DNA of 35,107 nucleotides, the filler included, from an uncultured Methanosarcinales archaeon (GTDB lineage: Archaea; Nanobdellota; Nanobdellia; Woesearchaeales; CAYNLP01), in the NCBI GenBank assembly GCA_964398115.1. It is 17 parts of 17 records of this genome, joined end to end, with 100 filler letters (N's around TTAATTAATTAA, not from the genome) between each part and the next. Parts side by side here need not be neighbours in the genome. Positions count along the whole stretch, not along the records: positions 5,149 to 7,578 come from CAYNLP010000053.1; 16 more parts are not named here. One strand, written 5' to 3'. The stretch's first letter is position 1. Every line of letters begins with the position of its first letter. This document shows positions 2,920 to 7,381 of this stretch, piece after piece. Position numbers and translations under genes: made by a program. The notes beneath the pieces are model-generated. The model worked only from the letters and a program-made list of their open reading frames with translations, did not search any database and was not told where the DNA came from.

Positions 2920-2953
2920 AAATAACTTCAAAAAAATATTAAATTAAATATTT

Positions 2954-3011
2954 GTCGCTTGCGACCTATCTTTCGCGAATCTTTGATTCGCAACCACCAG
3001 CCTCTGGCTGG
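2954..3011. repeat. Cluster of three short perfect hairpins
   Basis: GTCGC-TT-GCGAC (2954-2965), GCGAATC-TTT-GATTCGC (2975-2991), CCAGCC-TCT-GGCTGG (2997-3011). Confidence 0.8.
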
Positions 3012-3246
3012 CTTCTTTCCAAAAACATAGAAAATCTTTACAAGCTGGCGTAAGGTTTCATCAGGGAACTCCTCAATTTTATCAACAAGAAACTCTGCAA
3101 CAATACGAAATCCCTTCCAATTTAGAAATGATGGAAAGATCTGAAGCAATCTGTTCTTCCAACCTGGAAAGCTTCGAATACTGAAAAAGACCAAACTGCC
3201 AAGCCCCCCGCCCGGACTTTTTCCCTTTAAACATAAATCCAAAAAT

Positions 3247-3302
3247 TGAGAATCTTTCGATTCTCACTATATTTCCAAAACAACTATCGCCTCCGGCGAT
3301 AG
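3247..3302. repeat. Second hairpin pair related to 2975-3011
   Basis: TGAGAATC-TTTC-GATTCTCA (3247-3266), CTATCGCC-TCC-GGCGATAG (3284-3302). Confidence 0.8.
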
Positions 3303-3586
3303 CTTCTAAAAACCCTCTTTTCTTGTTAATATTGAAATTAATTATTTCTGAAAAACCTGAAAATCTCGAAAATCTTACGAAAAACGTCTGTATCTCGAAA
3401 ATTTTATGATAAAAATTTATATACAACCCTTGTTTTCTAGAAAAAACACAATGACAAAAACAACCCTAAGCGAAGCCGGCACAGATTGCGCTGAGAAAGA
3501 GACATCTTATGATCATGATCAGGCGTCTTCTGTCATCATCGGCTCGTCTTTTGATTATACGGTTCTGGGCTCTCCGGTGATTCACG

Positions 3587-3935: not shown

Positions 3936-4241
3936 ATGGCGAAGGAACTCATAAAAAGGAACAGACTCCTCTTGGACGAAGAAAGATTTGTGGAACTAGT
4001 AGCCTGGAAAGTACCCAAGGACAAAGACCATCAGGAAGGAATAAAGTACTCCTTCACCTACGTAAAAGAAGGAAAAAGAATCCTCGGAATAGACAACTAC
4101 AACAGGGAAGGACATCACAAACACATCCAAGACCGCAAAAAACCATACAACTTTACAACCCTGAAAAAAGCAGAAGAAGACTTTTACAAAATGATAGAGG
4201 AATTCGAAAATGAAAACCAACGAGATAAACATAAAGATTGA
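3936..4241 (+). CDS. DUF6516 (TumE-like) putative toxin
   Basis: WKVP...GIKYS..YV..GKRILGIDN...GHHKH signature; overlaps the downstream HTH gene. Confidence 0.8.
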   Translation: MAKELIKRNRLLLDEERFVELVAWKVPKDKDHQEGIKYSFTYVKEGKRILGIDNYNREGHHKHIQDRKKPYNFTTLKKAEEDFYKMIEEFENENQRDKHKD

Positions 4242-4587
4242 AACATTGGAAGAGTTCAGACAAAGAACCAGAGAAGAACTAGAAGATATAGAGGAAGGAG
4301 AGCAACAAACCTTCAAGGAAGAAATCCTCAGCTTCCAAAGCATAGAGCAGATGAGAGAATTCCTCACACCAAAGAGGATAGAACTTCTCAAAACAATACG
4401 GCATGAACAACCGGAAAGTATCTACGAACTCGCCAAGATGGTAGACAGGACTCCTGCAAACGTGAACCAAGACGTGAATCGCCTCGCCAACCTCGGACTG
4501 ATAGAACTGGAAAAGACCGACACCGCCAGGAAAAAAGTAAGACCTAAAGTCCGATACGACAAGATCAAGATGGAAATGGCAGTCTGA
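4210..4587 (+). CDS. HVO_A0114-like wHTH protein, putative (TumA-like) antitoxin
   Basis: LTPKRIELL..I....PESIYELAKMVDR...NV..DV..L..LGLIEL...RPKV.YD.I pattern. Confidence 0.8.
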   Translation: MKTNEINIKIETLEEFRQRTREELEDIEEGEQQTFKEEILSFQSIEQMREFLTPKRIELLKTIRHEQPESIYELAKMVDRTPANVNQDVNRLANLGLIELEKTDTARKKVRPKVRYDKIKMEMAV

Positions 4588-5155: not shown

Positions 5156-5206
5156 ATGACATAAATATACTAGCATGACATAAATATACCAGAATGACAT
5201 AAATAT
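5156..5206 (+). repeat. Three direct repeats of ATGACATAAATAT with 19-bp period (iteron/operator-like)
   Basis: Exact 13-mers at 5156, 5175 and 5194. Confidence 0.9.
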
Positions 5207-5252
5207 GTTACATGTTTAACAAATACACCAAAATAACTTTTTAAGACCAAAA

Positions 5253-6134
5253 ATGACAGATCAACGCCTGAAGAAACCGATCAGCAAATTCGCAGGATTC
5301 CACGTAGACGAAAGACTCAAGACCATACTAGAACAACTACTCAGCGAAATAAACGCCGACTGGGACAACATCATCATCATAGACGGCGAAGAAGGAGCAG
5401 GTAAAAGCACAATCGCAATGCAGATCGCTCACGTCATGAGCAAAAAACTAGACAAAGAATTCACAGTAGATAATGTCATATTCAATCCAGAAAAAGTAGT
5501 AAAGAAACTAAGCGGTGGAAACAAAGAAGTATATGTATGGGACGAAGCATTCAAAGGAGCCAACAGCGCCAGAGCCATGAGCAACCTAAACCAAAGACTT
5601 ATGGAAGTATTCATGGAAGCAAGAAGCAACAATCACACGCTAATCATGGTGATGCCATGGTTCTACTTACTGGATAAATACTATATACTACAGAGAGCAA
5701 AATTCCTATTGCACGTAGTGGCGCACCAGAATAGCGAAAACGAGAGGGAAAGAGGATACGCATACATCTATCCAAGGAGTTACATGAGAAAACTATACAT
5801 AGAAGGAAAGAAAGCGGGAGACTATCAATATCAGAAGCATGTCAGGAGCCCGCACAACCCAGTACAATTCGGGCCAAAGTTCCCTATAGATAGAGAAGAA
5901 TATGAAAAGAAAAAACACCAATACAGGAAGAGGCAAGCTAGGGATCAGAACGTGAGTTGGAAGAAATATCAAAAAATACTAAAAGAACACAAAAAGATGT
6001 TCCATAAACTTTTGAATGATTACACACAAGAGGAGGTTGCGAATATAATGGGTATAAATTCTAGGGCGACTGTGGCTCAAAGAAAGCAGAGGGATTTTTA
6101 CAAAGATATTGAAGAGGATGAAGATGATGAATAA
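5253..6134 (+). CDS. P-loop ATPase (Zot/tailless-virus morphogenesis-like) with C-terminal HTH
   Basis: Walker A IIIDGEEGAGKST, Walker B VYVWDE, ARS.NHTLIMVMP.F..LD; C-terminal YTQEEVANIMGINSRATV. Confidence 0.75.
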   Translation: MTDQRLKKPISKFAGFHVDERLKTILEQLLSEINADWDNIIIIDGEEGAGKSTIAMQIAHVMSKKLDKEFTVDNVIFNPEKVVKKLSGGNKEVYVWDEAFKGANSARAMSNLNQRLMEVFMEARSNNHTLIMVMPWFYLLDKYYILQRAKFLLHVVAHQNSENERERGYAYIYPRSYMRKLYIEGKKAGDYQYQKHVRSPHNPVQFGPKFPIDREEYEKKKHQYRKRQARDQNVSWKKYQKILKEHKKMFHKLLNDYTQEEVANIMGINSRATVAQRKQRDFYKDIEEDEDDE

Positions 6135-6142
6135 AGTATGTT

Positions 6143-6331
6143 TTGCAGAGAGGCACGGGGGTTTTGACCAGGGCTGATTTCTTTGCTGAGATCGCCTCTT
6201 TTTCCCAAACAGCACCCTTTGGGTGTCCGTGTCCTGCAATAACCTGACTGTGGGTGCTCCCGGTTTTACGCATTCTAACCTCTAAACTAGGGATGCTCCA
6301 GGCAGACTCCAAACGGAGTACCCACGGCAGG
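6143..6331 (+). ncRNA. Candidate two-domain structured RNA or ssDNA element
   Basis: GC-rich intergenic region with two long closing stems (6143-6158/6227-6239 and 6243-6266/6311-6331) and inner hairpins; wobble pairs are G-U on the + strand. Confidence 0.55.
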
Positions 6332-6361
6332 AAATAAAACCACAATATTTAAATAATAGCG

Positions 6362-6413
6362 TGTCGTAGAAGTATAGTAATACGACAAATAAACCTTATT
6401 ATAGGTTTTATTT
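6362..6413. other. Inverted repeats, candidate recombinase (att/dif-like) site
   Basis: TGTCGTA-N12-TACGACA (6362-6387); CAAATAAACCT-TATTAT-AGGTTTTATTT (6386-6413, 11-6-11 layout). Confidence 0.5.
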
Positions 6414-6451
6414 AAAAAACAACACAAACAAAATGTCGGGATATTTAGAAA

Positions 6452-6949
6452 ATGGCTCGTGATATACCCAAAGCACTAACAGAAGAAGAATACAAAAAAC
6501 TAATCAAAAACACAAACAAACCCAAACACAAACTCAGTTTTATGCTCGGATACGAATCAGGCCTAAGAGTCAGCGAAGTCACCAGCCTAAAACCCGAAGA
6601 TATAGACCAAAAAAGAAACCAAATCAGCATACACAACAGCAAAAGAGACAAAAGCCGCACAGTACCAATACCCAAAAACTTCAAACCCAAACACCTAAAA
6701 AGACTACCAATCAACCGCAGCGAAAGAACACTACAACGATGGTTCAACAAAGCACTAAAAAAAGCCAGCCTACCCCAGAAGTACACTTTCCACAGTTTAA
6801 GGCACGGTTTTGCCTTCCGACTCGCCGACAAAGGAATGAACATAAACTTCATACAACAACTAATGGGGCATGAAGCAGCAGAAACAACAATGATCTACAT
6901 GAAAGCCCGGCCAAAACAAGCAATAGACAAATACGAGGAAATGTTCTAA
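6452..6949 (+). CDS. Minimal tyrosine recombinase/integrase (catalytic domain only)
   Basis: GLRVSE (R), KRDKSR (K), HSLRH (H-x-x-R), LMGH, TTMIY (Y); only 165 aa. Confidence 0.92.
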   Translation: MARDIPKALTEEEYKKLIKNTNKPKHKLSFMLGYESGLRVSEVTSLKPEDIDQKRNQISIHNSKRDKSRTVPIPKNFKPKHLKRLPINRSERTLQRWFNKALKKASLPQKYTFHSLRHGFAFRLADKGMNINFIQQLMGHEAAETTMIYMKARPKQAIDKYEEMF

Positions 6950-7155
6950 TGAAAGAAGATTACCACTTCAAACTAACCAATAACGGTTACGAATTACTCC
7001 AAAACACATACATAACCAACAGCGACTACGCAGGACTGCGCTGGAACAAAGGCAGTATAAGCCAAGAAGAATTCACCAACATACTCAAATACAGAATGGC
7101 AGGAATAGCATGTTTTGAAAGCGAACTAGAAAAAAAGGTGAAAAACTTTGACTAG
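6949..7155 (+). CDS. Hypothetical protein (element-encoded)
   Basis: TAATG coupling to the integrase stop. Confidence 0.6.
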   Translation: MKEDYHFKLTNNGYELLQNTYITNSDYAGLRWNKGSISQEEFTNILKYRMAGIACFESELEKKVKNFD

Positions 7156-7381
7156 AAAACTCCTCGCAGCACACATAATCATCGCTGCTAGTATTTCAAC
7201 ACTCGGGTTATGGCTAAACTGGTGGAGTTTGCAGAACAATCTTTTAGTTCTCATACTATTGTATGTTTTGCAGACTCGTTGGAAACAAGCAAAACCAAAC
7301 CGTAAAGGATCTAAGAACTCGCCATTAGAGATGGCAGAACAGATGAATAACGAAGATAATGAAGACGGTGGTGGTGGATAG
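7148..7381 (+). CDS. Small membrane protein
   Basis: Two hydrophobic segments then a charged tail; overlaps the upstream ORF; GGTGA SD. Confidence 0.6.
   Translation: MTRKLLAAHIIIAASISTLGLWLNWWSLQNNLLVLILLYVLQTRWKQAKPNRKGSKNSPLEMAEQMNNEDNEDGGGG

Follow-up and report, generated by a model that had tools for sequence, protein, structure and literature searches.

A GC-rich, strand-biased folding island between an ATPase gene and a short tyrosine recombinase gene of an archaeal element: a candidate structured RNA beside the recombinase family's 24-bp palindromic site

What is the role of a GC-rich island of strong secondary structure that lies upstream of a tyrosine recombinase whose N-terminal part, the core-binding domain, is missing? 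The island in question occupies positions 6143-6331 (+ strand) of the window, by which we mean the whole stretch of 35,107 nucleotides that was analysed, a chain of small contigs with runs of N at the joins. It is located on contig C53 of the assembly G000 (2430 bp; window coordinate = contig coordinate + 5148), which represents a host genome of about 1.0 Mb in 67 contigs and is 91% complete. All genes of this contig are encoded on the + strand. The contig starts with three 19-bp direct repeats (ATGACATAAATATAC...; 5156-5212, +) with a spacing of 19 nt, found by a repeat search; these iterons could serve as an origin or an operator. They lie upstream of a gene for a P-loop ATPase of 293 aa with a C-terminal helical or HTH-like tail (5253-6134, +; Pfam nSTAND3, 4.5e-9). 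The initial annotation had described the island as directly upstream of the recombinase gene. In fact 120 nt separate its end from the recombinase start, and only 8 nt its beginning from the ATPase stop. Within the 317-nt spacer between the two genes its immediate neighbour is the ATPase gene. Beyond the island end by 31 nt, and 89 nt before the recombinase start, there is a 24-bp palindromic site, GTCG-N16-CGAC (6363-6386), which is conserved in the family of short recombinases. It is followed at 6391-6414 (+) by a small AU-rich hairpin, a T-rich run and an A/T-rich TATA-like stretch. The region 6355-6420 around this hairpin folds with -12.3 kcal/mol (z -2.6) and has a sub-threshold Rfam match to the terminator part of SpF51 (26.2 bits against a gathering score of 50). 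The recombinase of 165 aa, consisting of the catalytic domain only, is encoded at 6452-6949 (+; PF00589, 9.6e-32). An ORF of 68 aa (6949-7155, +), the start of which overlaps the recombinase stop by 1 nt, gave no family match in profile searches with Pfam, PHROG and NCBIfam, and a doubtful + strand ORF of 77 aa is listed after it among the contig genes.

Every helix listed in the initial annotation was found in the sequence of the island. Domain 1 (6143-6239, +) is closed by TTGCAG-aga-GGCACGG / CCGTGTC-CTGCAA, that is, by outer stems of 6 bp and 7 bp with an AGA bulge between them, and contains a three-way junction with the hairpins GGC-t-GATTTC/GAGATC-GCC and GCACCC-TTT-GGGTGT. This domain is well defined, with pair probabilities mostly of at least 0.9. 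After a linker of 3 nt (TAA), domain 2 (6243-6331, +) is closed by CCTG-a-CTGTGGGTGCTCC / GGAGTACCCACGG-CAGG, an outer stem of 17 bp with one bulged A, which surrounds a poorly defined interior of about 55 nt. The hairpin GCATTC/GGATGC that had been assigned to this interior is possible, though not as a fixed feature: in the suboptimal folds it appears only as a near-optimal alternative, 0.4-0.7 kcal above the minimum, and the GCAUUCU/GGGAUGC hairpin is one of several such options. The motif GGTTTT...CCAAAC, said to be common to both domains, is indeed present in each. A 4-bp GUUU:AAAC helix formed from the shared motifs costs 0.5 kcal in domain 2 and 3.1 kcal in domain 1, and a plan of outer stem, short GUUU:AAAC helix, internal loop and apical hairpin is possible for both domains. 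An alignment of domain 1 with domain 2 by MAFFT was structurally not sensible, and for this reason no domain model was built. Domain 1 also contains a T5 run (CTCTTTTTCCC); runs of this type are the kind of signal where archaeal transcription can stop.

The GC content of the island is 0.54, whereas the contig as a whole has 0.395 and the genome 0.394, in agreement with its description as a GC-rich island. Several G-U pairs had been taken to point to the + strand, and folding of both strands against shuffled sequences supported this assignment for the whole island and for each domain. Folded as RNA, the + strand of the whole island gave -77.1 kcal/mol and z -4.11, with 1 of 200 shuffles as good, against -61.5 kcal/mol and z -0.84 for the minus strand, with 37 of 200 as good; the island coordinates were picked by eye, a caveat on these z-scores. 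Domain 1 gave -39.4 kcal/mol and z -2.80 on the + strand and z -1.04 on the minus strand. For domain 2 the values were -36.7 kcal/mol and z -4.05 on the + strand, with none of 200 shuffles as good, and z -1.57 on the minus strand. The contrast between the strands was smaller with DNA parameters (whole island, z -2.67 for the + and z -1.74 for the minus strand). Counting along the sequence, we find 8 G-U pairs among the 56 of the model; on the opposite strand these become A-C mismatches. A background fold scan covered the first 16.4 kb of the window as 236 window-strands with 20 shuffles each, and z was below -3 in six of these and below -4 in one. The z-score of the island lies in the tail of this distribution, yet it is not unique; its absolute energy is by far the lowest in the scan.

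The island was then compared with coding sequences and known RNA families. None of the + strand ORFs crossing it is longer than 34 aa. The antisense ORFs over the island showed no Pfam match, and the one of 94 aa is without a homologue. A scan of the whole window with Rfam 15 gave no match at the gathering score. When the region alone was searched at E up to 10, only far-sub-threshold matches were obtained, to mir-3547 (19.8 bits against a gathering score of 77), sR19 (12.6 against 45), sR52 (16.7 against 50) and sR35 (12 against 60). The earlier description of the island as ncRNA-like is consistent with these results, as it is non-coding and has a two-domain fold, specific to the + strand, outside any Rfam family. 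Several particular identities were rejected. No tRNA was found, and the RNase P RNA sits elsewhere in the assembly (C7:15035-15374). There was no SRP family match on the island; the archaeal SRP RNA model RF01857 gave no match in the 91%-complete assembly either. A mimic of CRISPR repeats had nothing to be compared with, since a simple 20-mer scan revealed no array and the assembly contains no Cas1. An H/ACA guide RNA was rejected by the structure rules of that class, as the lower stem, read from the sequence, is too long and no ACA box stands directly at the stem base. No promoter for the island was seen and no processing signal was identified.

The initial annotation had pointed out that the recombinase has no N-terminal core-binding domain, and the profile matches are in accord with this. 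PF00589 covers residues 8-153 with profile positions 2-169 of 172, and the best NCBIfam match, XerA_Arch (1.7e-34), aligns to positions 91-257 of 263 only. The score against the XerA equivalog was 119.6 bits, with a cut-off of 220, and that against the integron-integrase profile 103 bits, with a cut-off of 265. In an alignment of 40 sequences, R39, K64, H114, R117, H140 and Y149 are invariant, and in our reading these columns probably represent the tyrosine recombinase catalytic residues R-K-H-R-H/W-Y. Homology searches gave 322 matches at E up to 1e-5, the best of them with 45-53% identity. The family members are mostly 163-200 aa long, and several relatives come from Woesearchaeota, Pacearchaeota or Nanoarchaeia MAGs, which suggests a DPANN-type host. 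Judged by these matches, the 165-aa recombinase is a member of a large Xer-like family whose proteins consist of the catalytic domain only. Recombinase loci were collected from genomes (43), metagenomes (80) and viral contigs (80); single-protein scans of viral contigs gave no close relatives. A Pfam search of the 25 ORFs directly upstream of relatives found no core-binding-type domain.

A palindrome of the form KTCG-N16-CGAM was found to be common to the upstream regions of the recombinase relatives. A spacing of N = 16 occurred in 23 of 79 non-redundant upstream windows, compared with 14 of 1280 control windows, and the other spacings from 8 to 25 accounted for one window in total. In 89 distinct loci (294 kb) there were 54 sites, against 7 in the reversed sequences. 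The palindromes lie beside the recombinase genes (loci L003-L125): 24 of the 54 are located 20-150 nt before the start and 14 at most 200 nt after the gene, making 38 gene-adjacent sites. An adjacent site was present in 36 of the 89 loci, or in 32 of the 72 with both flanks present. A TATA-like box directly after the upstream site was seen in 15 of 79 windows and in 5 of 1280 controls. The relatives usually have the 24-bp site close behind the preceding gene, and the site of the window lies at a distance from the recombinase start that is within the usual range of the family. The site travels with the gene on either side of it, as expected of a core site that perhaps doubles as an operator, and we consider it probably to be the core recombination site of the enzyme and/or its operator. 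The recombinase without a core-binding domain would then have an ordinary DNA target. Archaeal XerA/dif and other simple Xer-type systems are similar in that the catalytic domain is most XerA-like and a single palindromic site lies beside the gene. They differ in that XerA has an N-terminal core-binding domain and dif has other arms and another spacer, whereas here the protein has 165 aa, the site is KTCG-N16-CGAM and the genes are on viral or plasmid contigs. Thus a large family of tyrosine recombinases without the DNA-clamping domain carries a sharply defined 24-bp site beside the gene. This offers a direct, testable answer to the question of how minimal recombinases find their DNA, and it argues against an RNA guide as the solution. 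Although a by-product of the analysis, this finding is a more solid gain than the island RNA.

Relatives of the island itself were sought in 134 related loci, in its own genome and in 300 related genomes by blastn, a covariance model and a descriptor. Nothing beyond chance was found by blastn in 125 related loci, in 100 genomes of relatives (where one match of 23 nt had E 0.009) or in collections of phages and plasmids, and there was no match elsewhere in the host genome. The covariance model R1 was built from the single island sequence and is weak for diverged relatives; it found only the island itself in the window together with 95 metagenome and genome loci (the distant genome matches L018-L045 being left out), nothing in 39 viral loci, and only the island in its own genome. 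With stricter filters, it again found only the island in 150 genomes of the same order and 150 of the same phylum. The descriptor, a stem plus GGTTT...CAAAC, gave only chance-level matches over 1.94 Mb. The island is so far one of a kind. Having no homologues, it offers neither covariation nor conservation, and a z-score of about -4 in one sequence can be fortuitous. The upstream regions of the recombinase homologues showed no conserved structure, a result that tells against an RNA partner of the recombinase. Measured upstream from the recombinase start, the first ORF of at least 50 aa lies at a median distance of 44 nt in 74 loci, a measure that takes in spurious ORFs and so underestimates the spacers. 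Among the 15 largest upstream spacers, only those of L064 and L056 fold well, and they do so equally on both strands.

A partnership with the recombinase, in which an RNA acting as guide or as architectural element, or else a folded substrate of single-stranded DNA, would compensate for the missing core-binding domain, appears very improbable; its guide-like form had been the most speculative proposal for the island. The bridge (seek) RNAs of IS110/IS1111 elements are like the island in their size of about 180-190 nt, in their two looped stem-loop domains and in their position beside the recombinase gene of a mobile element; they work with DEDD/serine-type recombinases, keep a conserved structure throughout the family, and have loops that match both the target and the ends of the element. 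The layout of the island resembles that of IS110, with a two-domain RNA of about 190 nt that has internal loops and is encoded upstream of the recombinase gene (PMC11208158). The absence of a core-binding domain, with no split core-binding protein among the 25 upstream ORFs of relatives, also speaks for a partner of this kind. Unlike the case of IS110, the neighbour of the island is a tyrosine recombinase with PF00589 only. No such RNA was found beside the orthologous recombinases, and in most of them the space upstream is too small to hold one. A palindromic DNA site of the protein-recognized type accompanies the enzyme family and is present in this element too. Nor was complementarity above chance detected: in either sense, the island shares no exact match longer than 8 nt with the remainder of the 2.4-kb contig, against a mean of 9.4 for shuffled sequences, in a comparison on this contig only, with the element ends lying outside it, and blastn found nothing elsewhere in the host genome. 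A substrate role would have parallels in the attC hairpins of integrons and the folded attP of CTX phage, where folded single strands of 60-150 nt are substrates of tyrosine recombinases. The attC consensus places RYYYAAC at the 5' and GTTRRRY at the 3' base of the hairpin, and goes with extrahelical bases, a cassette array and an integron integrase with an extra domain. In contrast, the outer stems of the island, read from the sequence, are TTGCAG/CTGCAA and CCTG/CAGG, with GTT and AAC in the opposite order and inside the fold, and there are no R boxes, no integron-integrase insertion, no cassette array and no dif-like half-sites within the fold. No RNA-guided tyrosine recombinase is reported among the literature matches listed, and a 2026 review of RNA-guided recombination treats tyrosine recombinases, in the part of its text available, as conventional site-specific enzymes (PMC13604230). 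As no link of the fold to the recombinase emerged and the RNA is absent from the relatives' loci searched, neither the guide-like partner nor the folded substrate of the initial annotation is upheld; the lack of co-occurrence has already largely refuted a recombinase partner. An equally improbable variant is that the twin-module RNA is a scaffold joining two copies of an element protein. In its boldest form, these would be two recombinase monomers at the 24-bp site 31 nt away, and one viral lineage would then have evolved an RNA-assisted module for tyrosine recombination; in a less bold form, the island would be a structured regulatory or anti-host RNA, the first from DPANN viruses or plasmids.

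The ATPase gene, as the immediate neighbour of the island, gives indications of the nature of the element. The protein matches PHROG 5484, 'DnaA-like replication initiation protein', at 1.6e-7, a weak family match like that to nSTAND3. Its confident structural model (pLDDT 88.7) resembles only generic ATPase folds of the RecA/KaiC/Zot type, with TM of about 0.3, and no primase-polymerase or clear helicase domain was found in it by Pfam, PHROG or fold search. Among its 2127 relatives, some lie beside a short recombinase, as seen in 19 of 124 other loci, and IMG/VR viral contigs of 20-41 kb carry relatives of the ATPase together with short recombinases. The most likely origin of the contig is for this reason a virus, provirus or plasmid, of which it would be a fragment. 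No comparable GC island is contained in the 400 nt after the ATPase gene in 17 related loci (L005 and L089, in which the gene is cut by the locus end, were dropped from this comparison). Compared with its relatives, the island is thus an extra piece of one element.

The explanation we prefer, with a probability of only about 0.4, is a structured RNA that is specific to this element, forms the tail of the ATPase transcript, is composed of two similar protein-binding modules and does not belong to the recombination machinery. The island lies between the ATPase gene and the site-promoter module of the recombinase, on what would be a fragment of an element, virus- or plasmid-like, from a DPANN-type archaeon with a small genome. 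Because it begins 8 nt past the ATPase stop and is on the coding strand, we infer that transcription of the ATPase gene runs on into it and gives the transcript a 3' tail, which may be trimmed later. It would fold into two independent modules of one plan, which suggests that two copies of one protein, or a dimer, may bind the twin modules; alternatively, the RNA might protect or process the transcript end. An RNA is favoured by the significance of the fold on the + strand only and by the G-U pairs, by the + strand location of all contig genes with no ORF that accounts for the island, by the common plan that both domains can take, and by the island being an extra piece in comparison with relatives. 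There is also a precedent in the sgm-sRNA of Salmonella Genomic Island 1 (SGI1), a functional, structured sRNA cut from a 3' UTR beside a gene for a tyrosine-recombinase-like protein without a core-binding domain (PMC9299015). Of the published cases in which an RNA is encoded next to an enzyme of this kind, it comes closest to the island. It differs in being bacterial; its enzyme, MpsA, acts as a relaxase at an oriT, and its RNA region is conserved in 159 SGI1-family elements and has a genetic phenotype (PMC9299015). The RNA explanation is weakened by the lack of homologues in all searches, by the T5 run in domain 1, by the failure to see a promoter or identify a processing signal, and by the junction of ATPase gene and island lying outside the independently assembled contigs. 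If it is a working RNA, it would represent an RNA family missing from the catalogues, carried by mobile elements of ultra-small archaea that have hardly been explored, and the pairing of two like modules would indicate a specific protein partner.

The strongest competitor of the structured RNA, though itself doubtful, is a fortuitous or decaying insert, that is, a functionless GC-rich piece such as a relic of unrelated sequence between gene modules. The orphan status of the island in all searches would fit an insert, as would the empty place in the relatives, the z-scores of like size elsewhere in the window and the low coverage of the contig. It is less easily reconciled with two adjacent domains that are each significant on the same strand, follow one plan and share GGTTTT/CCAAAC, or with -77 kcal/mol in 189 nt, far below the rest of the scan; the enrichment of GC in an AT-rich element likewise argues for maintenance of the island. 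Somewhat less probable still is a replication element acting at the level of DNA or ssDNA, a stem-loop origin or priming site downstream of a replication-type ATPase. The Sulfolobus plasmid pRN1 requires for its replication a stem-loop of 100 nt, located in the 166 bp downstream of the replication gene and proposed as the origin (PMC4234260). The island has the corresponding place on a small archaeal extrachromosomal element, as a strong stem-loop 8 nt past the stop of a replication-associated gene. The iterons upstream of the ATPase gene and the PHROG match are in line with an origin, and the + strand still folds with DNA parameters. In pRN1 the replication protein is a fusion of primase-polymerase and SF3 helicase, and other pRN plasmids have stem-loops of a similar kind, whereas the ATPase here is a generic P-loop protein without a primase-polymerase or clear helicase domain, the fold is strand-biased with G-U pairs, and the 17 related ATPase loci have no island downstream. 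Moreover, the eight G-U pairs and the strand bias in RNA folding fit an RNA better than a cruciform derived from duplex DNA, and the iterons at the contig start would be an alternative origin. Hardly to be expected is a C/D-box small RNA that would take in the 3' end of the ATPase gene and domain 1 up to its middle (about 6118-6180). The sequence has AUGAUGA, a perfect C box, at 6122-6128 and CUGA as D box at 6173-6176, with a fitting spacing; a possible 4-bp terminal stem GAAG/UUUC flanks them, and sR52, sR35 and sR19 are among the weak Rfam matches. These matches are far below their gathering scores, however, and internal C'/D' boxes are absent; the C box consists merely of Asp/Glu codons of the acidic ATPase tail, and such an RNA would clash with the far more stable fold of domain 1.

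The sequence of the island could be compared with other assemblies. Parts of the contig were found in two DNA sequencing runs of one study, as short contigs with a depth of about 3-4x; no RNA runs holding the contig are listed. One independent contig covers the island and the 24-bp site (contig positions 994-1240), and a second joins the 3' part of the island to the recombinase start (contig positions 1157-1349). Neither of these contigs reaches the 8 nt that separate the island from the ATPase gene (6134-6141). No joints bearing on circularity were seen in the short contigs of the two runs. The sole variant that the Logan contigs show inside the island is a C>T change at RNA position 32 (L001:1026, window 6174) in run X1. 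It converts the domain 1 pair C32-G52 to U-G, so that the pair is kept on the + strand only; as support for a + strand RNA this variant is weak, coming from a single contig with a depth of 2.7.

A 14-nt exact direct repeat, GTATGTTTTGCAGA, is present at 6136-6149 and 7261-7274, 1125 bp apart, and encloses the island, the 24-bp site, the recombinase gene and the 68-aa ORF. A repeat of at least 14 nt arises in 3% of shuffled contigs and is therefore nominally unusual. Its copies were rejected as ends of a cassette and are probably due to chance, because recombinase half-sites are absent beside both of them. Some features near related recombinases were also recorded. The spacer L064:1020-1332 is palindromic and folds strongly, with z of about -5 on both strands, and the spacer of L065, which was not folded, has an identical length. 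A reverse-transcriptase ORF adjoins a related recombinase at L046:3-716, and GC-rich short tandem repeats lie by related recombinases in L086 (about 370-510) and L101 (about 240-430). In a neighbouring contig of the window, an ORF-poor region at about 2930-3440 shows strong local folding, with z -5.7 at 3277 on the + strand and z -3.9 at 3151 on the minus strand, from 20 shuffles only. At 3936-4587 of the window, a TumE-type toxin ORF (PF20126) is followed by an ORF for an HVO_A0114-type winged-helix protein (PF25212), and the two likely form a toxin-antitoxin pair.
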